Shown piece after piece: positions 14,262 to 44,194 of a DNA stretch of 64,000 nt (within the stretch, counting starts at the first letter, position 1; each line of letters begins with the position of its first letter). The translations under genes and the position numbers were made by a program. This DNA is from Schmidtea polychroa. Its lineage: Eukaryota. A model generated the notes under the pieces. It worked only from the letters and a program-made list of their open reading frames with translations. It searched no databases and had not been told where the DNA came from. Location of the stretch: the NCBI GenBank assembly GCA_044892525.1, contig CM097885.1, positions 28,398,001 through 28,462,000 on the forward strand, in the 5' to 3' direction.

Positions 14262-15318
14262 TTCAACAACAAACCAACAACTTAGTACCAACAACCAGTA
14301 ACTTATGAACATGTATTAACAACCAGATACCTACAACTAGTTACTAACAACCAGTTACCTGATACCAGATACCTACAACTAGTTACCTGATACCAACTAC
14401 TAACAACCACCTACCCATTAACTAGCTACAACCAGCTAACAACTAGATACCACGTACTAAATAACTCTCAAACAACCAAGTACTTACAACTAATTACCAG
14501 ATACCAAGTACTATCAACCAGCTTACAACCTGATACCAACAACTAACAACCAACTACCAAGTACTTACAACTAGATACTAACAACCAGTTACCTGATACC
14601 AAGTACCTACAACTAGATACCACGTACTAAATAACTCTCAAACAACCAAGTACCTACAACTAATTACCAGATACCAAGTACTATCAACCAGCTAACAACC
14701 TGATACCAACTACTCACAACCAGATAACAACTAACAACCAGATACCAAGTACTTACAACTAGTTACTAACAACTAGCTACCAACTACTAAGTACTAACAA
14801 CCAACATCAACCAGGTACTAAGCATTATCAACCAAGTACTAACAACTAGATACCTAGTTACAAACAACCCGCTAACAACTAACAACTAGATACCAAGTAC
14901 CAGTAAATTACGAACATGTATTAACAACCAGATACCTACAACTAGTTACTAACAACTAGTTACCTGATAGCAACCAACTAGCTACCAACTACTAAGTACC
15001 TACAACCAACATCAACCAGGTACTAAGCATTAATTACCAACTACTAAGTACCTACAACCAACTAACAACCACCTACCAAGTACTAAGCATTATCAACCAA
15101 CTACTAAGTACCTACAACCAACTAGCTACCACCTACAACTAGATACTAACAACCAGTTACCAACTACTAAGCATTAATTACCTACAACTAGTTACTAACA
15201 ACTAGCTACCAAGTACATACAACCAGACACTAAGCATTATCAACCAAGTACTAACAACCAAGTACAAGATACCTAGTACTGTCAACTAGATACCAAACAC
15301 TTACAACCAGATGACCAC
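14262..15318. repeat. C/A-rich mosaic array of short words (CAACTAG, ATACC, AAGTACT, AACAACC)
   Basis: Direct reading; strongly G-poor on the + strand; mirrored at ~23455-24505. Confidence 0.85.
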
Positions 15319-15675
15319 ATTATTGGTTAAATATGAAAATAAGGGTTATAATTAGTTGTTTAGTAAATTATGGTGTAAAATTAAGTAATAAAGCATAAAT
15401 AGGTAAATTAAGGATAAGTAAATTAAAGTTAAAAAATTAAATTAAAGTTAATTAAGGTCCAAATTTTAAAAATAAGTAATCAATGTTCTAAAAAATTAAA
15501 TTAAAGTTAAATAAGTAAATTAAAGTAATAATTTTTAAAGAATTTAATTAAAGTAATAATTTTTAAATAAGTAATGTAATAAGTAAATTAAAGTAAGATT
15601 TTTAATTTTATTATCAAAAGATTGAATAACCACCAACTTTTTTGAGAAATGTAATTTATAATGAAAATTTAAATG

Positions 15676-15800
<125 letters not shown>

Positions 15801-18019
15801 CAACAGTTACCAACAATCGGTTACTGATTATTTTTTAACTAGGTGCTAACAAATACTTACAACTAGATACCACGTACTAACTAACTCTCAAACAACCAGA
15901 TACTTACAACTAACTACTAAATATTCTTCACTGTATTTTATGAAATGCTTTTTAAATTAATATTTTTTATACAGCTTCTATAATAATTTTAATTACAATC
16001 AGTAGAAAAACCTTTTCAAAATGTCTAAATTTAACAAAAATGTTGATTTTCATCAAAAAACCACAACTCAACCACTTTAAAACACCACGTGGAATTCAAA
16101 ATAATTACAATGAAAGACTAATGAATTCTAATTTACAAAACATTCTTCTTTTAAATGATAACTTATTATTGCAAAGTAAAAATCACATTCAATAAATACT
16201 TATTATTGATCAGTTTTATTATATATACTCTGAGTTTATCCGACAGGATGTTTTGACCCCCTAAGGGTACAGGTCGTAAGGGTATTAGTCGTAAGGGTAC
16301 TGGTCGTAAAGGTACTAGTCGTAGGGGTATTGGTAACACTTAACCACAACCTACCCATTAACTAGCTACTAAGTACTAACCACTAGGTTTCAAACAACAA
16401 CTACTAACAACCACCATCAAAACCCATCGAGAAATTAACAAATATCAACCTACAACTATATAACAATCAGTAAACAACACTGTACCAACTACCAAATACA
16501 AGATACCAACAACTTAGTACCAACAATCAACTAACAACACATAAAAATAATAGCAATTAAATACAAAATATTCTTCATCGCATACACTATTTTCTTATCA
16601 AAATCTAAGAAGTCAATCAGATACCAACTACCAAGTACCAAGTACTAACAACCAACTACCTAGAACCAACAACTATGTACTAACAAATTGATCTTTAAAA
16701 GCAAATACTCTTCACTTGAAAAATTGGATGAAAAATTATTTGAACTCAAGGCATCAATAACTTGGTAAAAATTGATTAAATAATTGTAAAAATTTAAATT
16801 ATTCAAAATAAATATCATAAAAATTTAATTAATGGACAAGAAAAAATTCTAATCATCCAATAAATAAAAAAAAATGCTGATCATTCAAGTTGAATCAACT
16901 AAGATAATAAATTAATAAGATAAGATCTAGTAGATAATTGATTAAGATTGAATAAATTAATTTAAATAAAATTAAATTTAATTATTTTTGTAAAAGTAAT
17001 ACATGTACTCAAATTGATTGACTGATTTCTCAATATATTCAAAAAAATCAGTATAAATTCATTACAATTATCAAAGTCAGCAATCTACAATAAAAATAAT
17101 TATCATAAAATTCCAAAAGAGACTAGATAACTAATGATAACATCTAATAAACCAGTAAATTTATTTAAATGACAATAATTGGTATATCCTAGTGAATTCT
17201 CCAATTTCTCATTTCCTCCCAAATATATCAATATGTAAAGATTAGTATTGTAATGATAAATACTTGTTAAAGATCATATATTCACCTCAAACTAACAAGA
17301 TTCCTTAAAATCCCCTTAAATGACTATATTTCTACCCTTAATTCATATTATTACAAATATTTCACTAAAATCATCTAAAAAGCATCAAATTTCCCTGAAA
17401 TAACTCTATCTTTTAAGATTGATATTTTAATGATAAGTACTTGTTAAAGATCATATATTCCCCTCAGACTAATAAGATTGCTCAAACTCCCCTTTAAATG
17501 ACTATAATTCTAACTTTAATTCCTATTATCATACATGTTTCACTATTGATAAAACCGGTTATAATTAACTTTTTGTTAATCACTGTACTCGAAATTTAAA
17601 ATAAATATAACTGACTAGGTCCCATTAAAAGATTAAATTTATCCATTCAATAAAATATATTTCTTCAAATGATCATTTTTACCAATATTCAACCGATTTA
17701 ATTACTAATTAAAATCAAGATTTCTTCCAATAAAGATCAATTTTATTTAGTCGATGTTTTAAGTCCATATTTCTAAACTTTTGTCATTCTCCGCCTAAAT
17801 AAAGATAAAAATAAATTAAAGTTGATATCAATCCCAATTATCTGTAAAGATTTCATTGTCAAAACCAAGTAAATCGATCATTATCCCTACTTAATAAAAC
17901 ATTGTTCTAAATTAATTTACTGTGCATTAATCACAACCTAATAAAACGATATAATTATTATTGATTCATAACTGACTAATGTATTGCAATTTCCTTAAAA
18001 AAACATTGATATTTTACCA

Positions 18020-18370
18020 ACATCACCCTTAAAAAATCATATATTCCCATCGAAACCCTTCCCTCATTAAAAGCAACCGACTATATCTCCCTTACAATAA
18101 TATATTCCCATCTTAACCCATCTCACATTAAATCTAACCGACTATATCCCCTTAAAAGATCATATTTTCCCCATCTTAACCGATCTCTCATTAAATCTAA
18201 CCAACAATATCCCATCTTAACCGATCTCTCATTAAATCTAACCGACTATATCCCTTTAAAAATCATATATTCCCATCTCTCATTAAATCTAATCGATAAT
18301 ATCCCATCTTATCCGATCTCTCAGCAAATATTTCTACCCTTTTAAACATCTATCCGATTATATCCCTTAA
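18020..18370. repeat. Tandem repeat CCCATCTTAACCGATCTCTCATTAAATCTAACC-like (mirror ~20405-20750)
   Basis: Direct reading. Confidence 0.8.
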
Positions 18371-19940
18371 TTTCCCTAAAGATTCCACCCACTTGAACCC
18401 TTTAATATATATCAATCCTCTTAATATCCTTAGAGAACTTCAAAAAGTATGAATTTTCATAAACTGTTAAAGACACCAGGCATTCTTCCATTGAAATAAT
18501 TTAGAAGCTAAATAATAAGAGCCCACTAAAAGATCAAAATTTACTAAAATTTTCTACAAATATTTACCATCAAATACTGGAGATGATATATATTGATTGA
18601 TCATAATTCTTCATCGATTCAACCAATCATTTTCAAGCAATAACAGCAAACTAAATTTCTGTATATCCTACAATAATTATCAAGTAAATTTAAAGTCATT
18701 GATAAATATTCTTAGAAAATTATTGAAAAAAATTATCTAGTCAAATATATTACAAAGTTATCATCAAAAATTTATTCTATCACTTAATTATTAACCTAAT
18801 TGTCAATGAAATTAATTTTTATTTAATAAACTAGTCGTGGCTTGTTACGTAATAAAATAGTTTAAATTACATATCCTTCTCACTTATATTCCACCGATTC
18901 TCATTATCCCACTATTTAATCTCCTATATTCCCCCGATTCTCCATTAATTATTCACTTATATCCCCTTTATTTTCCACTAATTATTCACTTAAAACATCC
19001 CCACAAATATTTGTTTTAAAAGTTTTTTTTTTATTAAATTTATGAATTTTATGAAATAATTTTAAATAAATTCAATTAATATACTTCCATTCTTATCCAC
19101 CTTCTTCTTATCTATGCCACTTCTCATTATCTACCTCCATTAATGGATTATTCTACCAATTATTTTCACCCATTTGAATCGAGTAATGAATAATTTCCTC
19201 ACTTTAATGAAGATTCTTACCACCTTCATTGCTAATTTTATCAAAATTTAAAGAATATTTCTCTTTACATTGCTTACCACTTTAGATTTTTTATCGAAAT
19301 TTGCGATAATTTGACTAATTCAATGATAAATGAGTTAATTAATATATACTCTGAGTTTATCCGACAAAATATTCTGTCCCCCTATGGGTATTGCTCACAA
19401 GGGTACTACTCACATTCAACATGTCGCAAGGGTATTAGTCGTAAAGGTATTTAATGTTTTTATTTGAATTTAGACAAATTTGTTGTTTAAGGTATTGATA
19501 ATTTTTTAGAGTTGATGGTTTTATTCAAGTAAATTTCTATCATTTTTATGAATTTCTATCATTTTTTGTAATTTTCTATTATTTTCATGAATTTCCGTAC
19601 TTTTTTGTGAATATGCGTAATTTTTGTAGATATCTATCATTTTCATGGATTTCTAACATTTTTGCAAATTTCATGTTTATTGAATGAATATTTAATAATT
19701 TCTTGATAATTGGATGTATTTTTATTGACTTGTTTTTTTTTTTTTAATTTTAAATAAAAATTATTTTCAATGAGGTTAATAATTAGAGATTTTACAATAA
19801 TGAAGTGGTAGGATAAATTTTTATGAGGATATTGAATAATTTTCTAAGAATTTCATGTTGACTGATTAAAAGTTTTAATGGTGATAAATTTAATTGATAA
19901 ATTTAGTTAATTTCTTGATAATTAGTTGTATTTTATTGAA

Positions 19941-26743
<6,803 letters not shown>

Positions 26744-27856: not shown

Positions 27857-29445
27857 CAGGGATTGCAAATTTCGAGGAAAATAAAAAAATCGGAATTCGA
27901 AATTCGAAAGTTAAATATATTTCGGAATTCGATCGAATTCCGAAATATTGTAAATTTTTTAAAATCTATACAAATAATAAAAATAACTTATTTGAGATAA
28001 TTTATTGTTATATATTGCATAATATTACTTTTTTTAAAATAAAAATGGAACATAAAATTATATCATTCAAAATGTAATATAAACATGAATGTATTGTACA
28101 CAAATTCAATTATTACATAACAATATAATAATAGTTAAAAATATATTATTTAAAATGTTATATAAACATAAAATTATTGTACAAAAATTCAATTAGTACA
28201 GAAAAATTCTAATATGGCATATCATTTAATAATAAAAAATATAAAATTATTCTTGTGTTTGCCTAAAATATGCTTTAAGAAAGCAGAGATCACTTAAAGA
28301 TGTGTCTCCGAGTCTCGATCGAACTTTTGTACAAAAGATACCTGCAATTGAGAAGGCTCGCTTGGACTCCACGCTCGATGGAGGAATCAAAATCAAAAAT
28401 GAGTAGACAGACTCTAATATTTTGCCACGAACGCCGTTTTCTTCAAAGAATTTCATTTCAGATTTAATTTTTGAAATTAAGATCCGATTTGCTATTTGTT
28501 GAGTTTTGCTGGAATGTATGTTAGACGATAAATTCAATTGAATTTTGTTCTGCGACTTTTGCATTAACGACTGGGGATTGGTTTGTTCTTCCGACATCAC
28601 CTCTTCACATCTTCTGACTGCTCACCTGAGGAAGTTTCCATGTTAGTGTTAAATATCAATCTTTGTGCAAAGCTTTCAATAACTTTGGCTATTGCATTTT
28701 TCAATGTTCGTCTTTGGGTTATTCGGTTTTCTAATTCGTTCTTCAATTTTAATGAAAGTTCATCAGATCCCAAATTTTCAAGCATAAAAGACAATGCCGC
28801 ATCAGCAGAAAGCAGATTTGCATCTTCTCGACAAAGGGCGTCAATAGTAAGCTTCACTGGGAGAAGTGCAGAGATCATGTTGTTAATCGAGAAAATTTCA
28901 GCATCTAGAATAACGATATCAGACTCAATGTCAATCAATGCCTTTCTAACACAGCTTTTTAGTTGGTTAAATCTTTCAAGCATTTCGACTAAGCTATTCC
29001 ATCTAGTTCTAGTGTTCATAATAAGTTTCAACTCTTTTCCAAATTCTTGTTTCACGTATACTTGAAGGATATCATTCGATGTTCTCGAAAAACGAAATTT
29101 CTTTACAATCGAACGAACTTTTTTGATGAGAAAACCAAATCCAAATTCTTCAGTCTTAACATGCTCAGCTTCAATATAAATTTGTTCAATCAAGCCAACA
29201 CTTTCATCATCAATGTATTCCTCATCCTCTGATTTCTCGAAGTCACTTCCTTGTTCTTCTACGCTAACATTTTCTGTATCTGTGTGAGCCACCAATTCAT
29301 CAGTTGTATTCGAATTATTATACAGAACATTAACTACAGCTAAATATATCGCGTGTGCAAAGCACAACTGTTGATTACATAGTAAAAGCCGCCCAACCTT
29401 TTGCATCACAGCTGCCCCATCAGTTGTTATGGACGTAATATCTTT
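27857..29445 (-). mobile_element. 3' portion of hAT transposon interrupted by the Polinton
   Basis: Terminus CAGGGATTGCAAA at 27857 followed by TTCGA/CGGAATTCG subterminal repeats; transposase on the minus strand. Confidence 0.75.
28247..29445 (-). pseudogene. hAT transposase, central and C-terminal part (frameshift near 28600)
   Basis: ITTDGAAVM, CFAHAIYL, TRWNS and the hATC motif PPSSVESKRAFSIAG...KVRSRLGD...CFLKAYF. The first ~16 aa of ORF 28597-29493 are Polinton TIR sequence, not transposase. Confidence 0.9.
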
Positions 29446-30238
29446 AGTAGTGTGGTTATATACCCAACCAAAACAGCCCTCCCAACCAAACATGCCTCCA
29501 AATCACTTAAGCTATTAGAAAAACAACCTAAAACTTATACTTTTATAGTATTTTAACCCTATATTTTGAAAACAACCACCCTTAATGACTCTAACTGTTT
29601 TAATCTTTAAAGCCTCAAACTCAAAAGCTTTTTTTTTTCACTGTCCTCTCAACAGTTTTTTTGATCCGGATCATTTTTTTTTTTATTTCAACCTCTTTCG
29701 TTTATCAAATCTCTTCCAATATACAAGCTGGCCAGACTCATACATCAGAATCAATCCGATAATAGCAGCACGCCTTATTATTCGCTTCTCGCTCACGAAG
29801 TCGATTTCAACGGCGTTTTAAGCGTGCTGCTCGAAAGTACAAATGAATTCGAAAGCGAATCCGAAAGAGGTCCGAAAACAACTGAGAAATAAATGTGCAC
29901 ATTACCGGGATCGATCCGGGGGTGTTCGAAAGACAGGTGGCGATAATTACCGGTTCGCCACCATCACCCGTTTCAATATTTTTTTTTTCATATTTGTGTT
30001 TAAAAAATAATTAATTAATAAAAAAATAAAATAAAATAAAATAAATAAAATAAAATATACAAGTACTTTATAAATCTAAGATACCCACACTATTTTCAAT
30101 ATTATTTTCAAATTTTTAATATTATTTTATGTTGAAAAAAAACTAACCTCAGATGTGATTTGAACCACTATCCATTTGAACCACTGTGCCAGTCTATTCC
30201 CACTGCGCTATCTAGGATTGGATTTTTGTCATTTTTTA
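29446..30238 (+). repeat. Polinton left TIR (~790 bp; lacks a ~190-bp segment present in the right TIR)
   Basis: Reverse complement of 43210-44188 except ~43815-44003. Confidence 0.9.
30146..30217 (-). ncRNA. tRNA-like Pol III unit in left TIR
   Basis: Minus strand TCCTAGATAGCGCAGTGGGAATAGACTGGCACAGTGGTTCAAATGGATAGTGGTTCAAATCACATCTGAGGT: A-box TAGCGCAGTGG, duplicated B-box GGTTCAAAT, T8 terminator (30135-30142). Confidence 0.5.
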
Positions 30239-30464
30239 TACTATAAATAATCGATTCAAGTTCTTTAACTCTTTCCTGTAATTGTTTCATTTTCTTCAAT
30301 CTTATATCAGCAACATCTACAGCCTTCATATAAAAATGTCGATACTTTTCATTATCTACCATCAACTCTTTGATGTATTCTAATGGTTCTTCTTCTCTTC
30401 TTTTCATTCTCTTATGTTTAACTTCATTCAATTCATTTCTCATTCTTTCTTTTAACTCATCCAT
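30168..30464 (-). CDS. Small charged coiled-coil protein of unknown function (Polinton accessory)
   Basis: 98-aa ORF with AAAATG start context, E/K/R-rich helices; C-terminus runs into the TIR. Confidence 0.5.
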   Translation of the reverse strand: MDELKERMRNELNEVKHKRMKRREEEPLEYIKELMVDNEKYRHFYMKAVDVADIRLKKMKQLQERVKELESIIYSIKNDKNPILDSAVGIDWHSGSNG

Positions 30465-30634
30465 TTTTATAAATATTTTTTTATTGGATATATTAATTTT
30501 TGGTAGCTTAAGTTAAAACGTTTTTGATCTTAAATTTCCAAGAGTTGCCGTTGACCAATCTCCTTAAAAATTTGTACAAGTACTAAATCGAGTATGCTGA
30601 TCAATATTTCGTTAAAAAAAAATTTGAAAAAAAA

Positions 30635-30707
30635 TGACCGAAATGGGATTTGAACCCATTGGTATTGGCAATGCAGTCGAGTGCTATTACCACTAAGCTA
30701 TTAGAGC
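30635..30707 (-). ncRNA. tRNA-Cys(GCA)-derived Pol III RNA / tRNA-like gene
   Basis: Minus strand GCTCTAATAGCTTAGTGGTAATAGCACTCGACTGCATTGCCAATACCAATGGGTTCAAATCCCATTTCGGTCA (73 nt): A-box, D-arm, CT-GCA anticodon loop, perfect T-arm ATGGG-TTCAAAT-CCCAT, T8 terminator. The 3' strand of the anticodon stem does not pair. Confidence 0.7.
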
Positions 30708-30829
30708 TATACTCAATATAAAATAAGTTGTTAATGTGTGACTATTTATTGATGAAATTAATAATTAATTATTCATTTTCTCGACAACTACCACTCAGAT
30801 CCATCTGAAAATTTAAATATATACTAAAA

Positions 30830-32070
30830 TCAGTACGCTGAATCAGATTCCGTTGAAAAAAAATATCCCCCCCCAACTCTCCCCAACTTCAGGATCTATT
30901 GCAAACTTAAATCGTAGGGGTGATATAGTTTTTCAATCTCTTCAAACATCAAACCCTATAGATATTTGTAATGCCAAATTATATTATAAAATCGAATTAG
31001 AAATTGAAGCAAACAAAGATATAACCCTAGAAAATAATTTCTTTCCAAATTTATTCTCCAACATGAGATTAAAACTAGGATCATCAGAAATTGAAACTGT
31101 TTTGCATCCGGGAGTATATTCTACAATCTTAAATTTTATTTTGACTGGTTGTGATTATAAAAACTAATATGGTGAATTAACAGGTTGGATTCCTGATGTT
31201 AATAAAGGGGATTTAGATAAAGATGGTTTAGATGTAAACCATGGTTACCATAAAAGAGCTGAACTTTATAAATCTAAAAAATTTGAAGGTTATTTTGAAT
31301 TAAAACACTTGTTTGGATTCCTTCAAAACTATAATCGTATACTTCATAATGTTTTTATAGAATTCATCTGTAATAGAGTAGAAGGTGATAAAAGATTGTT
31401 CTATGGAGCTGTAGATACAAAAGCTAAATTAAAATTATCAACACTTGAATTACATATACCTGAATGGACATTAAACCCACATTCTGAGATTAAACTCCTT
31501 GAAAGATTAAATTCCAACAAGTCTATAAATGTAAATTATTTAAATAGAATCTGTAGTGAATTTAGTATGACAGAGGGTTCAACATATTCTATAAAGGTAG
31601 CAAATTTAGCATACCGACCAAGATATATCTTGATTGGATTCAAAGAAGTAGATTCATCTTTCCAAAAAAATAACAACTTGTTTATTCAAAAGATTGGAGT
31701 TGATAATTTAAAAACAATCCAAATTCAATTAAATAGTTCTTATTATCCAATAAATAGAATGGAATTTAATATTGAAAATAATGAAAACATATTCCCATAT
31801 CTAAATTATATTGAAACATGTTATGATTTCAAAGTTGAACCGCAATTAAGTTTAGAAGATTTCAAAAATTTATATTCTATATTTTGTATAAATGTTTCAG
31901 ACCAAGATGATCGCCTAGCCATAAATAATGTTGATGTTACACTTCATGTAACAAAGGATTCTAATTTTAAAGCTAAAGTATATACATTAATATTAGAAGA
32001 AAAGAAAATAGAAATGAAATTATATGGTGGAAAGATTTCAATAATCGAAAATGTTAGGGGAGATTCTTGA
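30830..32070 (+). pseudogene. Double jelly-roll major capsid protein (hexon-like), with one in-frame TAA at 31165-31167 and a probable 5' frameshift
   Basis: ORFs 30853-31167 and 31309-32070 are in the same frame. Read-through gives YGELTGWIPD...NHGYHKR...LKHLFGF, plus NFFPNLFSNMRLKLG, RPRYILIGF, QLNSSYYP, YSIFCINVS typical of Polinton MCPs. Confidence 0.8.
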
Positions 32071-32099
32071 TATAATCCCTGATATTTTAACATTTTAAA

Positions 32100-33509
32100 A
32101 TGTCTCTAAATAAATATTGGAGATGTGAAAGTTGTAATTGTCAAGTTACAAGACATCATAAAGCAAATCATTTAAAAACTAAAAAACATGCAGGAGGTGA
32201 TCTAATTCCACGAGCTGGAGGCGATTTGCAATCTTCAAAAACAACATCTTCAATATTAAAACCTTTTACTACAGAAAAATATCCAGGTGAAAGACATTTA
32301 TTTAAACACAACTATACTGGACCAGGAACACGTCTAGATATTAGATTAGATGAAAATAATAATCCCAAACAAGGAGAAGAACCAATAAATAGAATTGATC
32401 AAGCAGCTTTAAAACATGACATTGCATACAATTCAACAAATCTTAGAGATAGACATGTTGCAGATGTGAATTTAATACATGATTTAAATAGTATCCAAAA
32501 TCCATCAACCCAAGAAAAGATTCAAAGAGCTCTAGTTAAATTAGCAATGAAAGGTAAGATTTTCATAGGCTTAGGACACAGTCCGATCACCATGGGTGCA
32601 AGACTTCCTAGGAAAGCAAAAGATGTTGCTTATAAAAAGATTATCGAACAAGCAGAGATTGAAAGATCCCTCGAGAGTACAGCCAAGACTAGTTTACAAA
32701 CCCCAACAGAATCAGAAATAAAATATGCAAAGGAATTACACCATGAATTTAGAAAAAATAAAAAATATTTAAAAGTTCAAGTACATGAAAAAGATCAAAC
32801 ATGGTCTGCAGATTTAGTCTTTATGCCTAAATCATCAGACCCTGAAAAATATAAAATAATTTTAACTGTAATAGATTTATATACAAGATTTGCTTTTGCA
32901 AGATGTTTAGAAAATAAAACAGGATATTCTATTACAGAAGCATTTGAAAATATATTTGAAGAAAATCAAAGAATCCCAAAATATTTATGGTGTGATAAAG
33001 GAACAGAATTTTATAACAAAGTTTTTACAAAGTTTTTAAATGAAAATGATATTAAATTATATTCAACAGAAAACGAAGGAAAAGCAGTCGTAGTTGAAAG
33101 ATTAAATAGAACATTAAAAAATAAAATGTGGAAATATTTTACTGATATTGGAAAACAAAAATGGAACAATGAATTGTTACAAAAGATTGTAAATGAATAT
33201 AATAATGATGTACATAGTTCTATAAAATTAACACCTTTAAATGCTTCCATGAAGCCTGAAACCATTAAAGTGGTAAATATTGAAAATGATGTTATTGAAA
33301 AACCAAAGTTTAAAATTGGTGACCGAGTAAGAATATTTAAATATAAAAATAAATTTGAAAAAGGATTCACAGCAAAATGGACAAATGAAATTTTTATTAT
33401 AAATAAAATAAATTATACAACTCCAATAACATATAGCATCTTTGATTTAAATAATGAAAAAATATTAGGTAGATTTTATAATAATGAACTACAGAAAACA
33501 GATTTTTAA
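32100..33509 (+). CDS. Retroviral-like (c-)integrase with N-terminal C2H2-like Zn finger and parvovirus-type phospholipase A2 domain
   Basis: CESC...HLKTKKH; HNYTGPG...PINRIDQAALKHDIAY; DDE core WSADL / LWCDKGTEF / VVERLNRTLK; C-terminal KFKIGDRVRI...FEKG...WTNEIF. Confidence 0.92.
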   Translation: MSLNKYWRCESCNCQVTRHHKANHLKTKKHAGGDLIPRAGGDLQSSKTTSSILKPFTTEKYPGERHLFKHNYTGPGTRLDIRLDENNNPKQGEEPINRIDQAALKHDIAYNSTNLRDRHVADVNLIHDLNSIQNPSTQEKIQRALVKLAMKGKIFIGLGHSPITMGARLPRKAKDVAYKKIIEQAEIERSLESTAKTSLQTPTESEIKYAKELHHEFRKNKKYLKVQVHEKDQTWSADLVFMPKSSDPEKYKIILTVIDLYTRFAFARCLENKTGYSITEAFENIFEENQRIPKYLWCDKGTEFYNKVFTKFLNENDIKLYSTENEGKAVVVERLNRTLKNKMWKYFTDIGKQKWNNELLQKIVNEYNNDVHSSIKLTPLNASMKPETIKVVNIENDVIEKPKFKIGDRVRIFKYKNKFEKGFTAKWTNEIFIINKINYTTPITYSIFDLNNEKILGRFYNNELQKTDF

Positions 33510-33520
33510 GTCGACAAGCC

Positions 33521-34312
33521 CTAAAACAAACTTTTCCATATTTCAGCTTCTTCTCTATCCAAATAAATATAATTATATTTTTCTTTCCAATGATTATCAA
33601 CAAACATATCAAACATATTCTTATCAGGTTCAACATTTGAAAATAAATCATTATAAATCATATTCTTATCACGGCGATCTAATTTAAAAAATATAAAACA
33701 ATTGGAATTATTTCTTATTGAATTTTTATCTAAAGCATAATATGTTTGAGATATATAAATAACATTACAATTATTATGTCGACCTCGTGTAAAGTAACTC
33801 TTTTGAATCTCTTGATTTTTCATATTAACAACATCATCAAATATAACTAGATTCTTTTTATCTTTAGGAAGTAAATCACAATGTAAAACATCTTCAGGTT
33901 TATTAGAGAATAAAACTTGAATTGCCTCCTGCCCTTCTTCACAAATATAATCATTTTTATTACTAATATCTGATTCTAAAATCTTTTCCTTATACCAATC
34001 AACCATATCACAAGGTTGAAAAACTTCTTCAGGACACCTATGTTGATTTTTAAAAATATCAATTATTGCTTTTTTAGTTAATTTATTTTCAAATCCACAT
34101 TTCAAAAGTTGTAATTCTGGTTGATTTATGGTTGTAGAATAAAAGATTAAATTATTATAATCTAAAAAATCATCTTCAAGTAACATTCTCAAAACAAGTA
34201 CATTCTTTCCACATCCAGAAGAACCAACAATTAATAATCTAAAATTATCAGGAAATAACTTATTATTAAATTTACTTTTGTGTCGAGTTAAAATTGGTTT
34301 CCAAATATCCAT
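33521..34312 (-). CDS. A32/FtsK-like genome packaging ATPase
   Basis: Walker A GSSGCGKN, Walker B LVIFDD, FTRGRHNN..YISQ, IRNNS. ATG at 34312 (MDIWKP) preferred over the longer non-ATG start. Confidence 0.92.
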   Translation of the reverse strand: MDIWKPILTRHKSKFNNKLFPDNFRLLIVGSSGCGKNVLVLRMLLEDDFLDYNNLIFYSTTINQPELQLLKCGFENKLTKKAIIDIFKNQHRCPEEVFQPCDMVDWYKEKILESDISNKNDYICEEGQEAIQVLFSNKPEDVLHCDLLPKDKKNLVIFDDVVNMKNQEIQKSYFTRGRHNNCNVIYISQTYYALDKNSIRNNSNCFIFFKLDRRDKNMIYNDLFSNVEPDKNMFDMFVDNHWKEKYNYIYLDREEAEIWKSLF

Positions 34313-34327
34313 TTTGTTTATTATAAA

Positions 34328-34905
34328 ATGACAACTGAAGAATCTTTGCAAGAATTAATAAATTCAAATAAAAATAAATCAGTAGTAATTGATGGTAAAA
34401 AATATTTTATTGGAAAACATGTAAAAGAACAAGTTAGAGCGAAGCTCCACGAAGCTAAAGAAGGTGGCATTCTTCCATTAGCTGCTTTAATACCTGCAAT
34501 CATTGCTGGTTTATCAGGTGCTGCTGGAATAGCTGGAGGAATTGCAACTACAGTTCAAAAAGCTAAAGAATCTCAAAAGACAGACCTAGAAAAAGAAAAC
34601 TACAAACTGAAATCGATTCAATGAAGAAGGTAGGGCAAGCTAAAGGGGGAGTGTCCGTTGGAAAGGGTCTCTATCTTAATCCATATGAGGGGAGTCGGCA
34701 AAAGTCTCAGGGCAAAGGTCTCTATCTTGATCCTTATAAAGGTAGAGGTTTAAATGATTTTTTAAAAAATCAAATTTCTACATCTGAATCTTTATCTTCA
34801 AAAGATAAAGAAGATTTAAAAAAAATATGTAAATCTTTAAAGAATGGATGCCTTTGTAAAACTAAAAATGGTAAAGGATTATACTTGAAGCCCTTCGAAC
34901 TATGA
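34328..34905 (+). CDS. Adenovirus pX-like core protein precursor, split by a -1 frameshift at the A-run 34596-34599
   Basis: EGGILPLAALIPAIIAGLSGAAGIAGGIA hydrophobic segment and three GKGLYLxP(Y/F) repeats. Adding one A fuses both ORFs (DLEKEKLQTEIDSMKK). Confidence 0.7.
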
Positions 34906-34927
34906 TACCATTTTTGATACCATTAAA

Positions 34928-35809
34928 ATGGTATATGAAGAAAGATTAGCACTTTTAAAAAAATTACAATCTGAACAAGATAAATATAATAAAAAAGATA
35001 CAACTCAACATGCTGAATCTATAATATTAAATGAGGTAATAACACAACAACAGGGGCCAACAATTAAAGCTATAAAAGAGTTGGAAGATTTCAATGAGCA
35101 AGCAAAATTTAAAGAGTTAGAAGATAAAAAACAAAAAATAAAAGAACTAGAGTGGCAGGATAAAGAAAAAGAATCCAGTGAAAACCATCCTGAAAGAAAT
35201 CAAAGAAAACGCAGAAGAATTTCTAATGTGGAAGAAGAAGAAATGTTTTTAAAAACAAAAGCTCTTAAAGTTGATCCTAAAATTAGAGATGATTTACCTC
35301 CTTCAATTAGACCCACATTTAATACTAATACTGAAGGATATCAAATAATAACAATTAATAAACAAAACTTTACTTTATATTCAAATTCAGAAAATAAATC
35401 ACGTATTCATTCACAAAATGTTTATAATAATGAATATTTAGACTTTGAATTTACAGATGATTTTTATAGATTACTTTGTGGATATTCTTCAGATGATGTT
35501 GAAGAAATTAAAAAATATTTAAATTTAATAAGATTAATAAGAGCTAGTTCTAAAGCAAAATATATTCAAGATTTAAAGAATTATTTAAATAAAAATGAAA
35601 AGGGTTATGTTGTTACAGAGGGAGAGGGATTAATTAGTGAAGGTGGTAAACCAAATCCCATCAATCTTTTTATTGAATTAAGAAAACTATTAGCTGCAAG
35701 GAAAGCAGGACATAATAATTTAGATTCTGATATTTTAAAGATTTCTAAAGATTTGTTAAAACAAGGAATAATTTCAAAAGATAAATTTAATAAGTATACG
35801 AAGTTATAA
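34928..35809 (+). CDS. Conserved Polinton hypothetical (probable virion) protein
   Basis: 293-aa intact ORF; coiled coil, NLS-like RKRRR, C-terminal GEGL...NPINLFIELRKLLAARKAGHNN motif resembling other Maverick accessory proteins. Confidence 0.7.
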   Translation: MVYEERLALLKKLQSEQDKYNKKDTTQHAESIILNEVITQQQGPTIKAIKELEDFNEQAKFKELEDKKQKIKELEWQDKEKESSENHPERNQRKRRRISNVEEEEMFLKTKALKVDPKIRDDLPPSIRPTFNTNTEGYQIITINKQNFTLYSNSENKSRIHSQNVYNNEYLDFEFTDDFYRLLCGYSSDDVEEIKKYLNLIRLIRASSKAKYIQDLKNYLNKNEKGYVVTEGEGLISEGGKPNPINLFIELRKLLAARKAGHNNLDSDILKISKDLLKQGIISKDKFNKYTKL

Positions 35810-35831
35810 ATACGAAGTTTTAAAATACAAA

Positions 35832-36296
35832 ATGACTCCTTCAATATTAGATTTTTTAAAAACATTTGGAATAAATGCAAAAACAAATTTTGATTTAAAA
35901 GATTATGCAAATTATTTAAATTTAAAAATTAAAATATTAATGAATGATGAATTATCAAGTCTGGAGAGTCCCCTGAATATAATAATCAATTATCAAAATT
36001 CAAATGAAAAAGGATCTCATTGGGTTTGTATATATAAGAAATCTATCTACTTTGATTCTTTTGGGATTAAACCTACTAAAGAAGTTGAAGATTATCTCTT
36101 GAGGGGTTCTCCGATTGATTCCCCAAATGGTTATACTTTTAACTCTTTACAAGTTCAACCTTTGAATACTAAAATATGTGGTATTTTAAGTTTATATGTT
36201 TTGTATAGATTGAATAAGGGAGAGGGAAAGGGGCATACGCAGGATTTTGAATCTATAATTCAAGAAATTTATAATGATCTAGAATCTCTACTATAA
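35832..36296 (+). CDS. Adenain-like cysteine (maturation) protease
   Basis: GSHWVC, YFDSFG, QVQ....ICG (catalytic His/Asp/Gln/Cys). Confidence 0.9.
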   Translation: MTPSILDFLKTFGINAKTNFDLKDYANYLNLKIKILMNDELSSLESPLNIIINYQNSNEKGSHWVCIYKKSIYFDSFGIKPTKEVEDYLLRGSPIDSPNGYTFNSLQVQPLNTKICGILSLYVLYRLNKGEGKGHTQDFESIIQEIYNDLESLL

Positions 36297-36344
36297 GGAT
36301 TTTTACTATAAGGATTTTTACTATATGAATTTACTACTAAAGAA

Positions 36345-37109
36345 ATGGAGCTTCACAACCCTCCGGAAGATAATTTAAAAAAAATGGTAAACATAATGTC
36401 AGATAAATATTCAAGAACTTTATCTATAAATTCAAAAGAATCAGAGTTTACTATAAACTTTCAAGATTCAATTAAATTAGATCAAAATTTAAATTATGAA
36501 TTGGGGCTATTATGGTTTTGTGCTTATAATACTATTTTTAATATAACTAAAGATAATAATAAATTTACTATTCAAACTCGTGATGGGCATAAACCAGAAA
36601 TTATAACAATAGAACCTGGGGCATATGAGATAAAAGATTTAAATGATATACTTTCTAAAAAAACAAATGAAGGTATTAAAATTAAAATGGATATACCAAC
36701 TTCAAAATGTGTAATGACTTTGAAGAATATAAAAATTAGTTTTTTAGATAATTGTTTCTTTCACACAGTTTTAGGATTTAAACCTATGGATATAACAATA
36801 AAAGAAGATAAAATAATAACATCAGAAAATATTATAAAAATAATAAATACAAACACAATAAATATTCATTGCGATTGTATAACAGGTTCTTATAATAATG
36901 GTAAACAAACAAATGTTTTATATTTCTTTCCCTCAAACACAGTTCCTATGGGATATAAAATAGTTGAAAGAATGAATCCTCCAAATTATTTACCTTTATG
37001 TAGAAAATATATAATGGATATTAATTTTAAAATTCTTAATCAAGAAGGAGAATTGATTGATTTTAATGGAGAAGAGATTTCAATGTATTTACATTTGAAA
37101 CAGGTTTGA
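36345..37109 (+). CDS. Minor capsid protein (penton-like single jelly roll)
   Basis: IEPGAYEIKDLN, NIHCDCITGSYNNG, PMGYKIVE...YLPL, NQEGELIDFNGE motifs of Polinton minor capsid proteins. Confidence 0.85.
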   Translation: MELHNPPEDNLKKMVNIMSDKYSRTLSINSKESEFTINFQDSIKLDQNLNYELGLLWFCAYNTIFNITKDNNKFTIQTRDGHKPEIITIEPGAYEIKDLNDILSKKTNEGIKIKMDIPTSKCVMTLKNIKISFLDNCFFHTVLGFKPMDITIKEDKIITSENIIKIINTNTINIHCDCITGSYNNGKQTNVLYFFPSNTVPMGYKIVERMNPPNYLPLCRKYIMDINFKILNQEGELIDFNGEEISMYLHLKQV

Positions 37110-37133
37110 AGATTCATTTTAAATTATTAATTA

Positions 37134-38144
37134 ATGAGTTCTTATATTCCATGTAATAGAGGTGGTGGAACAATAAAAACAGGGTTTAATACAGAAGAAA
37201 TATTAACTTTAACAGAAAATAAATATATTAATGAAAGAGGTGATTCAATGAAGGGTGATTTAATTTTAAATGGACACAAGATAAAAGAATTATCTTTTCC
37301 AACTGATGAAGCTGATGCAGTTAATAAGAAATATGTAGATGGTGTTAAAAAATATACTGATTTAACAACAACAAGAATTGAAAGTTCATTAACAACAAAA
37401 ATTGATTCAATGGAATCAAAGCTTAATAATATCGAACAACGATTTAATGATAAATTTGACAAGTTACAAAGTCTGTTAACTGAACAAGTTGTAAAGTTAA
37501 ATACTGCTATATTAAATTCTAAAGATAAACAAATTATGAATACTAAATTTAATACAATATATAAAATAATAAATGAGATGATTACATCATTTAATAAAAG
37601 AATTTCAAATTTAGAGTCTCATGGAACACACATTAACACCACACGTAGTATTAGAAAAAGAGCTGCTGAATTAGAACAGAATAAAACATTATTACCCCAT
37701 ACATATAAACATTTTATAGAACCAAGTTTAATAACAACAAACAGTAAAGAATGGGGTGTTTTTATGGTTGTAAAAATTATTGATCCTTATTTCTTTTTGT
37801 TTGATGATGATAATGAAAGAATGAAATGGTTTGTGAAATGTGATTATAATAGTAAGCTTGAAAAGGGTGATGTTATAATGACTAGTTATGATTTACCACA
37901 CGGAGATTGGTATGTTAATACTCATTCACATGGACTACATAAAGTTAAAAGTAAGAATATTCATTTTTCTAGTTCACTTGTACAATATATAGATTTAATA
38001 TTTTATGAAAAAAAGGTTGATGTTGATGAAGTTCGTAAAGCATTGAGAGAATTGTATAAAGATATCCTCTCAACAAGAGTTTCTTTTGATATCCGAGTAT
38101 TGGTGCCAGATGGTGCTCAGAAGAATAAAGTCTTATTTTTTTAA
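37134..38144 (+). CDS. Putative fiber/spike protein
   Basis: GDSMKGDLILNGHKIKELSFPTDEADAVNKKYVD (tail-fiber / trimeric adhesin neck-like motif), long coiled coil, RSIRKR, then a globular C-terminal domain; directly follows the penton gene. Confidence 0.6.
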   Translation: MSSYIPCNRGGGTIKTGFNTEEILTLTENKYINERGDSMKGDLILNGHKIKELSFPTDEADAVNKKYVDGVKKYTDLTTTRIESSLTTKIDSMESKLNNIEQRFNDKFDKLQSLLTEQVVKLNTAILNSKDKQIMNTKFNTIYKIINEMITSFNKRISNLESHGTHINTTRSIRKRAAELEQNKTLLPHTYKHFIEPSLITTNSKEWGVFMVVKIIDPYFFLFDDDNERMKWFVKCDYNSKLEKGDVIMTSYDLPHGDWYVNTHSHGLHKVKSKNIHFSSSLVQYIDLIFYEKKVDVDEVRKALRELYKDILSTRVSFDIRVLVPDGAQKNKVLFF

Positions 38145-38152
38145 TTATTAAA

Positions 38153-38746
38153 ATGGAAGAAGTAAGAGAAGAAAAAATTTACCCAGAATTGAGATCATCA
38201 GGATATTATTCTTCCAAGGTCTCGGCTCCCACAGAACTTGAAATTATGAGAGTAAAAGAATTTAAATCAGAAACCTTACATTTACAAGATTTTTTAAAGC
38301 ATTATAAAAAAATTAAAAATAGATGGAATAAAGGGAATACAGTTTTAAAAGTTATAGGTTATTCTTTAGGATTTGCATCTGCAATATTAACAGTTATTTT
38401 ACCCATAACTTTACCAGTTGTTACTCTTGCACCTATAATACTTGGAAGTATTTCTGTGGCTGATGGTTTCTTAACTGAAATAGTTTCATTATCTTATACT
38501 TCTAAAAAGAAAAGTTTATATAGAGAAGTTTGTTTATCAATAGAATTAGGAATCTCTAAATTATTTTTATTTCAATTAAAAGCTTTAGAAGATGGAATCT
38601 TAACTGATGATGAAATAATGAAATCAAATCAAATAATTCAAGATATTAAAAATGAAGTTATAAAATTAAAAAGTGCAAATATTATAACTAATGAATATTC
38701 TAAAAAAATTAAACGAGACAAGTGGTTAAAGAATTCTTACTTATAA
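38153..38746 (+). CDS. Polinton membrane protein (hydrophobic hairpin)
   Basis: KIYPEL start motif, hydrophobic stretch VIGYSLGFASAILTVILPITLPVVTLAPIILGSISV, KALEDGILTDDE motif; 3' end may be frameshifted. Confidence 0.7.
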   Translation: MEEVREEKIYPELRSSGYYSSKVSAPTELEIMRVKEFKSETLHLQDFLKHYKKIKNRWNKGNTVLKVIGYSLGFASAILTVILPITLPVVTLAPIILGSISVADGFLTEIVSLSYTSKKKSLYREVCLSIELGISKLFLFQLKALEDGILTDDEIMKSNQIIQDIKNEVIKLKSANIITNEYSKKIKRDKWLKNSYL

Positions 38747-38832
38747 AATGGATGAATTTTTAAAAAAGTAGATCAAGTTGCTATAGTTGCTTAAATTAAT
38801 TGTCGACATTTTATTATTAAATATCGTTGGTT

Positions 38833-41800
38833 TCAGTTATGGTTGAAAGCCAACCTATGAATCATTAATTTATGATCTTTAAATTCTTTATCACTTAGAC
38901 CTTTTATATATTCAGAATCAGTATTAAAATATTTAAGTTCTAAACATATAGGATTAAAAACTTGAGAACATAAAGGTTTCTCGATTTCTCTCTCGGGATA
39001 AATAATTTCAACATTATAAATATCAAGATCAGTAATCTTTGTATCATATAACTTATTCAACTTTTCTAGATTTTTTATTATAGGGATTAAATTATTTCCA
39101 ATAGGTAGAGTTGTCTTTAAATCACTTAGTATGAATCTCTTATCATCATAATTTGATAATGATACTTTTTGAGATTCTATCAAGTGAATATCATGGTTTT
39201 CACTTTTAAGTTGATGTATTTCATCAATTTTATCTTTATGATTTGGATTCAATGTATCTATATAATCTTGATGAGAAAGATTCTTTGCAACCACTCTCTG
39301 TATTCCTTTACATCTCTTATCCTTTACAGGTTTTTCTTCTTGTCCCTCTGGTCCTTTAGGAAATATAGGATATCTATGTGTAATGGTTTCTTCTGTTTCT
39401 GGAGTTTTAAATATAAATGATCTAGTTATAAATTCAGGGTTTCTAAATGTTTCGTATGAATATTGTTTAGCACGAATAAATATTCCATTTTCTATAGGAG
39501 TAAAAGGTTTTTCATCTTTAAACGAAAATAGTTCTCCAGATGAATTTATTAAATTTGAAAGTATAGGATTTTCTTTCATATCTTTTTGTAAATCATGAGT
39601 TCTTATTGTTAAAAACATTGAATCTGTATCCATTGCATGCATTGATATATTTGCTCCGTATATAGGTTGTAAGATGTTATAATATGTTTCATACATTTGT
39701 AATTTTGAAAGTTCTAAAATTGTAAACCCTATAAATATTGGTTTGTTATATGTTTTCTCATAATTTTTTAATTCTACTGCAGTAAGATTTTCAGAAAATA
39801 CTTGTGCGTTTTTAAATGTAGGCTTTCCTAGCATGCGATTATAACGCTTAATATCTTTGGTAGTATTTGTTAGGAGTTCAATATGAGTATATTTATCAAC
39901 ATTCTCCATTGTTTTCCCAAATACTGAATTGTTTAAAAGTTTATAATTATTATCTTTAAAAAGGTTACCTTCTCTTTTTGCAATGTTTCGACACCTAATG
40001 TTCTCCTCGATGAAAGCTTTCATGAATGGAGCTTGTTTAAATCTTATGACACTATGAACTTTTTTTAATATCATTCCTCGTGAGAGATAAAATTGGAGGA
40101 GTCTATAGTGACAAAGATAAAACCTTCGATCTGTTTGATCACAAAGAAGTTTCATTGTTGGAGGTTTATCTTGTGAGATTTGCCATTCAGAAAGTTCGTT
40201 GATATCAATCTTTCTTCTTATGGGAGCTAAAGGAAAATATCTTGTTCCTGATTTTATATCATCTGGATAGTCGAGGTCACATTCTATAAAGTAACCTATT
40301 GGAGAATCTTTCGATGTTGAAAGTATTTCTTTCATAAGGTCATCTGTTGGGTTCTCTATTTCAGTGAAATCACTCATTGGTAAATATTGAGTCATAATTC
40401 CTGAATATAAAGCTGTTGCATCTATATAAAGTATAAATATAGGATTTTTCATTGTTTCTAATAATTCTTTTAATTCCTCATTGTTAATTTTCATATATGG
40501 ATCATCAGGGTGTTTAGATAGTCTTCGGCTAGTAGTTATTGCATTTCTAGCTTTTATTTCTCTATTCCCCATTACTGAAGAGACTCCTCTAATGTTTGTT
40601 TTAATTTGGTTAAACATATCGAGGTTAGTTAAAAGATCTATAATTTTATCAGCATCTTCTATATTTGAAGTGCAAATGGTATATAACATAGTATCCCAAG
40701 CTAAAGAGGGTGCAGTTATATAATTATAAGGTTTAAGAACAAAAGAGTTTGTAAATTCTTCAAAGCAATCTGCTAGAATATAAACATCTAAGGATAAATG
40801 CATGTTGGTATATTCTCCTAAAGTTTTACACTTGAATAATTCCCACATTTTAATGCTCGAGAATATTCTTGATCTGTAATCCCTGATTGTAGTAAGTTTG
40901 AAAAGAAATCTTCTTTGTTAGGAAGACTTGTTTCATTATATCTTTCAAACGAGTCAACATAGTCATAAGGATATATTCCTTTTGCTAAGCATGTAGGATA
41001 TTCTTCTGGAGGAATATTATTTTTTTCCAAGAATTCTCGAGTGATTTTAAAATTTTCTGGTTTCATTGTTTTTGCTACTGCATCTAGAGACATTTGGAGA
41101 AAGTTTAACGAGTCTATAAATTTTAATTTTCCATATTCAACTGATTTATATTTTTCCTTTGTTAAGCCGATAACTTTGAAAGAGTTTTTAGCATTTGCTG
41201 CTAAATGTTTAATAAATAGATGTATGTCATATCCAAAAAGATTATGAAATATAACAGGTATAAATTTAGGAGTATGGCAATTAAGATTGCAATTTTTATG
41301 AGCTGCTCCTCGATAATTATTTTCCTTTTTTAAATGATCATGATCTATAACTTTTTCATCAGGAAGAATATTCTGTTTACACATCCAACAGTTGGAAGTA
41401 TTTTCATATTCTTGTTGTTGTTGATTAGAAATATTTTGAGGATACTTTGTTTTTAATATTTTAAATATTTCATGTTCTAGATCATTTATATTTTTAGTAA
41501 AATGATTCAAGACTTCTTCAGGGGTACCTCCTAGAATTGAATATTCTCTAGATTCTATGAGTTCAGGATAATTACTTTTAAATAATAATTTATAAGCAGA
41601 TGGTAATTGTTTAGTTTTTTTAACACTATTAAATTTATTTCTTTTTCTTAGAAAGGCTTTCATCCTCTCTGGTTTCATCTTCTCTCCTGAGGAGTTCCAT
41701 AAATCCATGAGTTTATTTTTTTCTATTATTTTTAAATATTGATAAACCAAATCTTGTTTATGGTTTATAGATTCAAAGTCACCATAAAGAACTCCAACTG

Positions 41801-43163
41801 TTTGTAGTAAATTTGAAAAGTTTTTAAAATACATCTTGGGATTATTAGGCATTTTAATTAAAGCTGGATCATCTTTTTCACAAAATCTTGTATGTTTAAT
41901 CATAGAGTTTTTAGTTGTTGAATAATGAAGACATCTTTTACATGTTCCTCCTCCACTAGTTGGATTCTCTGGAGATGTAAAAGCTTGAAAGTTTTTTATT
42001 AAAACATAATGTTGATTATTTTCTTGTTCCAAGATTAAAAGATATATCTCGTTGTCCTGTGCTCCGTTATCCTTGGTTCCACTATCTGAAATATAAATTG
42101 GAATAATTTCTTTCCCTATAACATGTTCATAAATATTAAGTTTAAGATTATTTAATTTTTCAAATTCTGGAATGTCTTCTAGTTTCATTGGGTGTTTGAA
42201 TCCTTTGGGAAATATTAATTCATTTTCATATTGTTTGTATTTTGAAACTCTTTGGGGATTTGTTGCTTGAGGATGTAAATGTGCAAGTATTGACCAGATG
42301 AAACATTTGTTATCATTATTCTGTACATTTATAACATTTTTAGATTTAAAGGGTGTAGGAATATAAGATTTAGGATTGGGTGGTAATCCTCTCCAATAAT
42401 CAATCACTAAAGTTTGGAAAGAGTTGAATACTAAGTTTGAATCTCCTAATTCATTTTCTACTTCCTCTTGTTTTGCTTCTGCTGCTTTAATTATTTCTTT
42501 GATGGTTTTATCAAATCCTTTAATTGAAAATAAATATTTAAAAGGTATTCCAATTTCAACATCTAAGGGTGTTGTCTTTTCTTCTGCTCCTCGCCAGTAT
42601 TTTGCTTTGATTATAATTTTATATTTTATAACATTATACCTTGTCGGTTTATAATTTTTTAAAGCTTCAGTGAAAGAATTTTTAATATTTTCTTTATTTT
42701 TATTTATATATTCTCCAGGAGTTGCAGGCCCATTAATTTTTAATTGAAATTCATCTATATGATTAAAATTATCCCAGTTATATTTTTCTCTTTCAACATG
42801 ATCAGGTTCTCCTTCTGAATGACATTCCTCATCGTCAGAATTTTGTTTTTTATTTTTACATTCTTTTATATGTTCTAAATAATAGAAATTTAGTTTTGTT
42901 GAAAAGTTACAATGAGGACATGTAAATATTTCTCTATTTTTCCCGATACAATTTTCAAAATGTTTATTATATCCAGAATGTAGAAATCTTCCTTTACATT
43001 TAAGACAAAGTTTTGAATTTTTATCATTAAGATTATTTTCTTTTAATAAATGAGCTTTCGATTTTAAGTGAGAAATTAATCCAGTTTTATTTTTAAAAAC
43101 TTTATTGCAAATATTACAATTCATTTTTAGAAAAAAAATTTTTATTGGATACCCTGTTTTCAT
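38833..43163 (-). pseudogene. Protein-primed family B DNA polymerase (pPolB), split by a one-base frameshift at ~40848-40851
   Basis: ExoI YGDFES, ExoII FHNLFGYD, ExoIII DVYILAD, motif A YIDATALY, motif B KLLNNSVFGK, motif C DTDS. Adding one A restores RALKMWELF across the two ORFs. Confidence 0.93.
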
Positions 43164-43209
43164 TTTATTTTTTAAGATTTATATTATTCATTTTTTATAA
43201 TAAAAATTT

Positions 43210-44188
43210 TAAAAAATGACAAAAATCCAATCCTAGATAGCGCAGTGGGCTAGACTGACACAGTGGTTCAAATGGATAGCGGTTCAAATCACATCTGAGG
43301 TTAGTTTTTTTTCAACATAAAATAATATTAAAAATTTGAAAATAATAGTGTGGGTATCTTAGATTTATATTTTATTTTATTTATTTTTATTTTATTTTAT
43401 TTTATTTTATTTATTTTATTTATTATTTTATTTTTTAAACATAAATATGAAAAAAAAAATATTGAAACGGGTGATGGTGGCGAACCGGTAATTATCGCCA
43501 CCTGTCTTTCGAACACCCCCGGATCGATCCCGGTAATGTGCACATTTATTTCTCAGTTGTTTTCGGACCTCTTTCGGATTCGCTTTCGAATTCATTTGTA
43601 CTTTCGAGCAGCACGCTTAAAACGCCGTTGAAATCGACTTCGTGAGCGAGAAGCGAATAATAAGGCGTGCTGCTATTATTGGATTGATTCTGATGTATGA
43701 GTCTGGCCAGCTTGTATATTGGAAGAGATTTGATAAACGAAAGAGGTTGAAATAAAAAAAAAATGATCCGGATCAAAAAAACTGTTGAGAGGACAGTGAA
43801 AAAAAAAAAAAAAATACCACTGTCCTCTCAGAGCAGTTTTACTATTTTCATAAAATTTTTTATTCTTCAAGACATCAAGATTAAAATTTCATTTATTTTT
43901 TTTAATTAGCCAATTAGCAACTTGCTAGTTGGCATCCTCAAGTAGCCTTCTAACTTTTTCATAATACCATTTTCTTTTCTATTCTCTTTATGTTTTTAGT
44001 TTGAAGCTTTTGAGTTTGAGGCTTTAAAGATTAAAACAGTTAGAGTCATTAAGGGTGGTTGTTTTCAAAATATAGGGTTAAAATACTATAAAAGTATAAG
44101 TTTTAGGTTGTTTTTCTAATAGCTTAAGTGATTTGGAGGCATGTTTTGTTGGGAGGGCTGTTTTGGTTGGGTATATAACCACACTACT
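43210..44188 (-). repeat. Polinton right TIR (~980 bp)
   Basis: Reverse complement of the left TIR plus an extra ~190-bp segment. Confidence 0.9.
43231..43302 (+). ncRNA. tRNA-like Pol III unit in right TIR
   Basis: A-box TAGCGCAGTGG at 43238-43248, B-box-like GGTTCAAATCAC at 43281-43292, T8 at 43305-43312. Confidence 0.5.
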
Positions 44189-44194
44189 ATCTTT

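Follow-up and report, generated by a model that had tools for sequence, protein, structure and literature searches.

In retroviruses and LTR retrotransposons, the integrase forms the C-terminal portion of a structural polyprotein, Gag-Pol, from which the viral protease frees it, and the link is either an in-frame fusion or a -1 frameshift at an X XXY YYZ heptamer with a downstream stem. A phospholipase A2 (PLA2) of the parvovirus VP1u type is present in the virion module of some Polintons, as PLA2X in Alpha (Mayetiola-class) adintoviruses (PMC8502044) and as 'CAP' in Sf Mavericks (PMC5803895), and the available text of both papers presents it as a gene of its own that ends in a pX-like C-terminus. 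Where PLA2 and integrase are mentioned in the accessible parts of the wider literature, they are separate genes (PMC8502044, PMC5803895, PMC3671162, PMC4642659, PMC11071296, 10.64898/2026.06.19.733378, PMC11296320, 10.64898/2026.10.13.758929, PMC6048507, PMC11161782, 10.1101/2023.08.22.554363, 10.1101/045088, PMC8097293 and PMC11131425). For the mavirus virophage, the available portion of PMC6048507 reports cleavage at GG↓X and GX↓G by the viral protease, together with the presence in virions of the integrase and a processed predicted hydrolase, MV13. Slippery -1 sites have been predicted for the adintovirus Penton and Hexon-Adenain (PMC11071296, section 16); these concern other genes, and a PLA2-integrase pair is unmentioned in that section.

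We analysed a 64,000-nucleotide stretch (the window) of the AT-rich, 781 Mb genome of Schmidtea polychroa, in which a Polinton carries PLA2 and integrase in one open reading frame (Table 1). Unlike the described PLA2X and 'CAP' genes, as far as their available text goes, the PLA2 here is followed by the integrase, and the pX-like ORF (34328-34624; weak Adeno_PX match, E 0.014) lies apart. The element has the Polinton/Maverick (Polintoviricetes) gene set of pPolB, rve integrase, A32 ATPase, cysteine protease and DJR major capsid protein, with the capsid and PolB genes both broken in the window copy. The probable penton ORF gave no Pfam match. The 94-aa basic core protein contains five GG/GxG motifs, and both small core-type proteins are probable substrates of the element's own cysteine protease. 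ORFs at 28247-29502 on the minus strand, whose motifs we take to be those of a hAT-type transposase, reach the left end of the Polinton, so that the element was seemingly inserted in another transposon. A giant palindrome lies further upstream (13395-25375); its arms measure 3150 nt (100%) and 2402 nt (99%). The end motif and target-site duplication length of the element agree with the Polinton definition in the available text of PMC8097293.

Table 1. Features of the Polinton and its PLA2-integrase gene, in window positions.
Feature	Position	Strand	Remarks
Polinton/Maverick, TIRs, (AGT)2..(ACT)2 ends	29446..44188		6-bp TSD at 29440-29445 and 44189-44194
Major capsid protein region	30817..32070	+	In-frame stop at 31165-31167 in window copy
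Precursor ORF, Zn finger-PLA2-integrase	32100..33509	+	469 aa, 54.7 kDa predicted
C2H2-type Zn finger (C9, C12, H24, H30)	32124..32189	+	Read from sequence
Two AGGDL units (aa 31, aa 39), predicted GG↓D protease sites before PLA2	32190..32228	+	
Parvovirus VP1u-type PLA2 core	32295..32540	+	Pfam PF08398 PLA2-like, aa 66-147, E 4e-9
PLA2 Ca-loop YTGPG (aa 72-76)	32313-32327	+	
PLA2 catalytic HD (H106-D107)	32415-32420	+	
PLA2 second Asp, D122	32463-32465	+	
GLG (aa 157-159) at the PLA2-integrase boundary, predicted GX↓G protease site	32568..32576	+	
Internal ATG (M165), good Kozak context, CACCATGG	32592..32594	+	Subfamily-specific
rve DDE integrase (D238, D299, E333)	32724..33506	+	Pfam rve, aa 229-321, E 8e-12
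A32-type packaging ATPase	33521..34312	-	
Two small core-type ORFs	34328..34905	+	pX-like protein and 94-aa basic protein
Adenain-like cysteine protease, His/Asp/Gln/Cys motifs	35832..36296	+	Candidate maturation protease
Minor capsid (penton) protein, probable	36345..37109	+	Named by its position and resemblance to neighbours at related loci
Protein-primed PolB	38833..43163	-	Two ORFs, different frames, in window copy

The 469-aa ORF is a single open frame with zero internal stops, as the original prediction had it, and Pfam recovered PLA2 and rve as separate domains, with the GLG lying between them. The PLA2 part has the hallmarks of the parvovirus type (YxGPG Ca-loop, HDxxY, second Asp and three-helix fold); its top fold matches were densovirus/parvovirus VP1 and entomopoxvirus PLA2-like proteins (best E 8e-4), and a PDB sequence search with it returned weak capsid-protein matches alone (E 0.4). 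The predicted Zn finger is legible in the sequence, with zero Pfam matches on aa 1-33; this C2H2-type finger is found in only about one quarter of homologues, the remainder having a DUF5679 Zn ribbon or nothing in its place. The two AGGDL repeats are present as described, and the doubled GGD unit proved to be a polymorphic tandem duplication, with one unit in 13, two in 12 and four unscored among 29 copies. Two residues of the window copy, aa 23 and aa 31 (32168 and 32190), are unlike those of all 29 closest sisters, which makes the Ala in the first AGGDL a private change. The integrase had been called complete, which holds for its catalytic core and C-terminal beta domain, in a fold homologous to the retroviral integrase fold, but not for the chromodomain, for which Pfam gave no match in the window ORF and which many relatives' integrases carry. 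Four contig runs for which the RNA type was guessed gave one 103-nt contig over 32540-32642 (run X1) and one 94-nt skip without splice-type ends (run X3), and we count neither as evidence.

A whole-protein search returned 580 matches, from which the best 120 were used for counting. Both catalytic regions are spanned by 114 of these best 120 and both Pfam domains were counted by hand in 104, at identities to the window protein of mostly 37-59%, with one at 88%. The catalytic residues are kept throughout, both in PLA2 (H106 114/120, D107 113/120, D122 115/120) and in the integrase (D238 120/120, D299 120/120, E333 119/120). Because a whole-protein query favours fusions, the search was repeated with the integrase alone, and PF08398 was found on 71 of the 120 matches listed (hand count) and on 26 of the top 30. 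In an integrase tree of 112 rows (dereplicated at 85%, every second in-frame protein row dropped), the clade of the window protein comprises 37 in-frame fusions and two fragments (SH-aLRT 99) and is without chromodomain; a fuller integrase tree was built with FastTree. These comparisons indicate that the PLA2-integrase fusion is family-wide and old. Variant arrangements among the homologues include extra domains before PLA2 in P0090, labelled a coral protein, an insert of ~250 aa between PLA2 and integrase in P0103 and L067, and another protein before the integrase in P0167. The fusion is widespread, and no published description of it, or of a frameshift joining the two domains, was found in the openly accessible literature searched; the searched text of PMC8502044 describes none, and the map figures of that paper could show one. 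The fusion is a real, conserved variant that is apparently undescribed.

Within the genome, a first set of copies (30 loci out of the 40 best matches, the window's own included) is open across the fusion at 29 of 30 loci, the other having a stop at aa 93. As these had been picked by whole-gene likeness, copies were re-picked by the 3' half of the integrase alone; 28 of 29 sister copies are open and the remaining copy is interrupted by a stop at aa 218, which answers the proposed sister-copy check. A private mutation, the reading that this check addressed, is ruled out by the open copies together with the homologues that span both domains (114 of the best 120). The family is very large and young, with 2139 first-look candidates for the gene and 1078 for its 3' part, many copies being >99% identical, and it contains several subfamilies with open ORFs. 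Diverged subfamilies were reached with a distant homologue as query, and of 30 loci fetched out of 90 matches, 26 have the full fused ORF, three are broken upstream of the junction and one is unclassified. The full-length diverged loci, compared with the window ORF, gave dN 0.011-0.054 and dS 0.055-0.264 for PLA2, and dN 0.003-0.022 and dS 0.013-0.107 for the integrase, with linker dN near dS; the pairs share ancestry and are not independent. For the locus L157, for example, dN/dS pairs are 0.023/0.176 for PLA2, 0.008/0.061 for the integrase and 0.124/0.178 for the linker. These substitution patterns indicate that PLA2 and integrase are both under purifying selection in this genome.

The strong-Kozak ATG at 32592 noted in the original prediction raises the reading that a separate integrase is made by leaky scanning, internal initiation or an internal promoter, and that the open frame is incidental. 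This ATG is present in 28 of the 29 close copies, another linker Met occurs in 15 of the 29 classified diverged loci, and a Met is often present in the last PLA2 helix (position 150 in 29/120 homologues), all of which would suit such a start. The segment that holds this ATG, which itself looks like a second Gly site, is however absent from all 29 classified diverged loci, so the ATG is present but not conserved, and 14 of the 29 have no linker Met. In 92 of the 114 spanning homologues the stretch that leads from the Gly site to the first integrase helix contains no Met, and an internal Kozak ATG is ruled out as a general mechanism by these homologues and the 14 diverged loci. A separate start would also predict common stops or frame breaks at the junction, and none are seen in the clade of the window protein. 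We regard a separately started integrase as improbable.

The domains are flanked by short Gly motifs. Where PLA2 ends at the junction, the 114 spanning homologues have GxG (87), GG-X (15), Gx[S/A] (11) or another form (1), with G157 conserved in 119 of the best 120; in some subfamilies of this genome G-A-S replaces GxG. Ahead of the PLA2 start, GG/GxG is present in 84/114, and the remaining 30 either lack the region or start there (16) or have one Gly or none (14). A further Gly site occurs in 22 of the 114 linkers, which range from 3 to 252 residues, and the background for such sites is 0.08% of integrase 5-mers. In the AF2 model (pTM 0.54), pLDDT falls below 50 at aa 33-41 and 158-170, the positions of both Gly sites, and the window ORF thereby presents GG↓X or GX↓G in an exposed linker, a substrate feature of clan CE proteases. 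Free Polinton integrases have their own ATG just ahead of the helix that follows the linker in the window ORF. Stand-alone PLA2s (L201, L256, L257, L260 and L268) end in the same Gly site, behind which comes a tail that is basic or pX-like. On small contigs without a detected protease, five of nine PLA2s also have GxG three residues further on, which makes them an imperfect control for the cleavage reading. Viral contigs of ~3.3 kb (L262-L271) carry a stand-alone PLA2 of this type, with no Polinton gene detected.

The original prediction had proposed a virion-packaged polyprotein cleaved by the adenain-like protease, for which the Gly sites on both sides of PLA2, their flexibility in the model and the mavirus precedent speak as comparative support. 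On the strength of these motifs, cleavage of the 469-aa protein at the Gly sites flanking PLA2 is likely, with the element's cysteine protease as the enzyme. Alternatively, the fusion could work uncleaved as a bifunctional protein, with the Gly motifs serving to cap helices and as flexible hinges. In the model the last PLA2 helix is capped by G157, whose role may be structural; some linkers have only three residues after the Gly site, and the P4 residue is non-canonical. At P4 of the junction (position 155), Lys is found in 71/120 homologues and Phe in the window, so the M/I/L/N/Q of adenoviral protease P4 is not found at the junction site of the window ORF; the accessible text of PMC6048507, which gives the adenoviral preference, states no P4 rule in its mavirus passages. 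A purely structural role for the Gly motif fits less well with its presence before PLA2 and its doubling in 22/114 linkers, with its recurrence at protease-integrase joints (see below), and with the absence of the K+4 Gly from PLA2s of other viral contigs (L262-L271, L273-L277, L283, L285 and L286). An uncleaved, bifunctional fusion is improbable too, slightly more so than a separate integrase start.

Related elements offer a second form of the link. Viral and metagenome scans yielded 96 loci, from which 29 tandem PLA2-integrase pairs in different ORFs were taken and five were dropped (two with breaks inside the integrase, three with same-frame stops or gaps). Among the 24 out-of-frame junctions that remained, 20 are -1 and four are +1, counts that are not independent because the -1 loci share ancestry. 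A strict in-phase X XXY YYZ heptamer lies in the interval from the Gly site to the PLA2 stop at 15 of the 20 -1 junctions, where the loci's own background predicts 1.0, and in 14 it lies within five codons (0.53 expected); a strict or relaxed A-run is present in 19. In a separate replication scan of 65 MAG-contig loci, five junctions are out of frame, four of them -1 with the heptamer and one +1 without it, and two more are in frame; the prokaryote labels on these contigs are probably due to mis-binning. A viral scan with one -1-class PLA2 as query gave zero matches, and a scan with a -1-class integrase alignment gave only two contigs, both already in the set. The window's own junction is in frame, with no slippery heptamer between aa 159 and 218. 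In 21 of the 24 -1 loci of both scans together (20 by script, L124 by eye), no ATG precedes the first catalytic Asp, so that intact elements of this kind would score as having truncated or dead integrases.

From the placement of these heptamers, it is probable that the related elements join PLA2 to integrase by -1 ribosomal frameshifting. The competing reading is that the -1 junctions are decay or assembly errors in the A-run of an always in-frame fusion, with no programmed frameshift, in which case the gag-pol parallel alone would be lost and the polyprotein reading would stay intact. Homopolymer runs are prone to indels, +1 is found at four of the 24 junctions and once more in the MAG-contig set, and in-frame and -1 forms are interleaved in the integrase tree. 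Errors in A-runs would not explain why K-K/K-N pairs elsewhere have the strict heptamer in only 6/113 cases, nor why four of the five out-of-frame MAG-contig junctions are -1, all with the heptamer (two of these loci, L188 and L190, being near-duplicates). In L188 the ORFs for PolB, capsid, penton and ATPase are long and open, and the PLA2-integrase junction is the only place where the frame is lost. Five sequences from the clade of L188 have in common a 12-bp hairpin that starts 5 nt past the heptamer, and two of its pairs show compensatory changes. At most -1 junctions a stimulatory RNA structure 5-9 nt downstream is weak or absent (mean z of -0.72 against 0.02, p 0.03). We consider the error reading unlikely. 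At L091 (1395-3007), a -1 PLA2-integrase junction has a heptamer and a strong hairpin (z -4.7); its integrase is of the long-N-terminus type, far in the tree from the other -1 loci, and on this basis its junction is possibly of independent origin.

A third arrangement attaches the integrase to the protease, the two being fused in frame through a Gly site in L050, L075, L101, P0137 and P0158, and such fusions occur in at least three separate places on the integrase tree. In L050 (3982-5957), a pX-like ORF shares a -1 overlap with the protease-integrase fusion, and an A-run heptamer is present in phase, an arrangement that suggests a three-part precursor. With many in-frame fusions and others likely frameshifted, the integrase likely enters particles as the tail of one of their proteins and is released afterwards. 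The original prediction had the link couple membrane penetration with integrase delivery; because relatives use a probable -1 frameshift or a protease fusion, a special coupling to membrane penetration gives way to integrase packaging as the likelier purpose.

We therefore favour a model, which we think probable on sequence grounds, in which the Zn finger-PLA2-integrase polypeptide goes into the particle as a core precursor for the element's protease to process, a gag-pol-like packaging device. The three parts are encoded as one polypeptide, which would enter the particle as a core protein, possibly via the basic Zn finger. The cysteine protease would cut at the Gly sites before and after PLA2, releasing a ~13-kDa PLA2 for endosome escape and a ~37-kDa integrase for insertion, the latter with a new N-terminus like that of free Polinton integrases. 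Relatives with a -1 junction would make the same product at a low level, with little integrase per PLA2, and others attach the integrase to the protease, while in the window's clade the link is fixed in frame, which would give PLA2 and integrase one to one. The broader proposal, that a large Polinton lineage expresses its integrase like retroviral Pol, as the tail of a core precursor behind either the Zn finger-PLA2 or the protease itself, reached by -1 frameshifting in many elements and in frame in the window's clade, and released by protease at Gly sites, we see as evenly balanced. The element might instead now spread only inside cells and have no virion stage, with PLA2 acting on internal membranes or passively carried. 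The broken capsid and PolB of the window copy would fit this, as would the statement, in the accessible part of PMC8097293, that a Polinton virion has never been observed. Against it, PLA2 is under purifying selection among the subfamilies of this genome, and relatives keep the full set of capsid, ATPase and protease; strictly intracellular spread is very unlikely.

The fusion alone would be moderately interesting; together with the probable frameshift and the protease fusions, it amounts to a testable packaging strategy. Packaging would be the main reason to tie an integrase to a particle protein via protease sites, and if the model is correct the precursor would provide sequence-level evidence for integrase carried in real Polinton particles, and a convergent gag-pol strategy in a dsDNA virus.

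Compared with Alpha adintoviruses, as presented in the available text of PMC8502044 and PMC11071296, the window element shares a PLA2-like gene in the virion module, but lacks the pX-like domain that PLA2X has at the PLA2 C-terminus, and its integrase lacks the C-terminal chromodomain that is present in relatives. With mavirus it shares the clan CE protease type, which in mavirus cuts GG↓X and GX↓G, whereas the mavirus integrase and hydrolase are separate genes and MV13 is an alpha/beta hydrolase, not a PLA2; the integrase MV02 and processed MV13 are found in mavirus virions (PMC6048507, in its accessible portion). Compared with Gag-Pol, the Polinton is a dsDNA element whose integrase carrier is a Zn finger-PLA2 core protein or a protease, and its protease is adenain-type, with no reverse transcriptase, so the likeness is one of analogy and not of membership.
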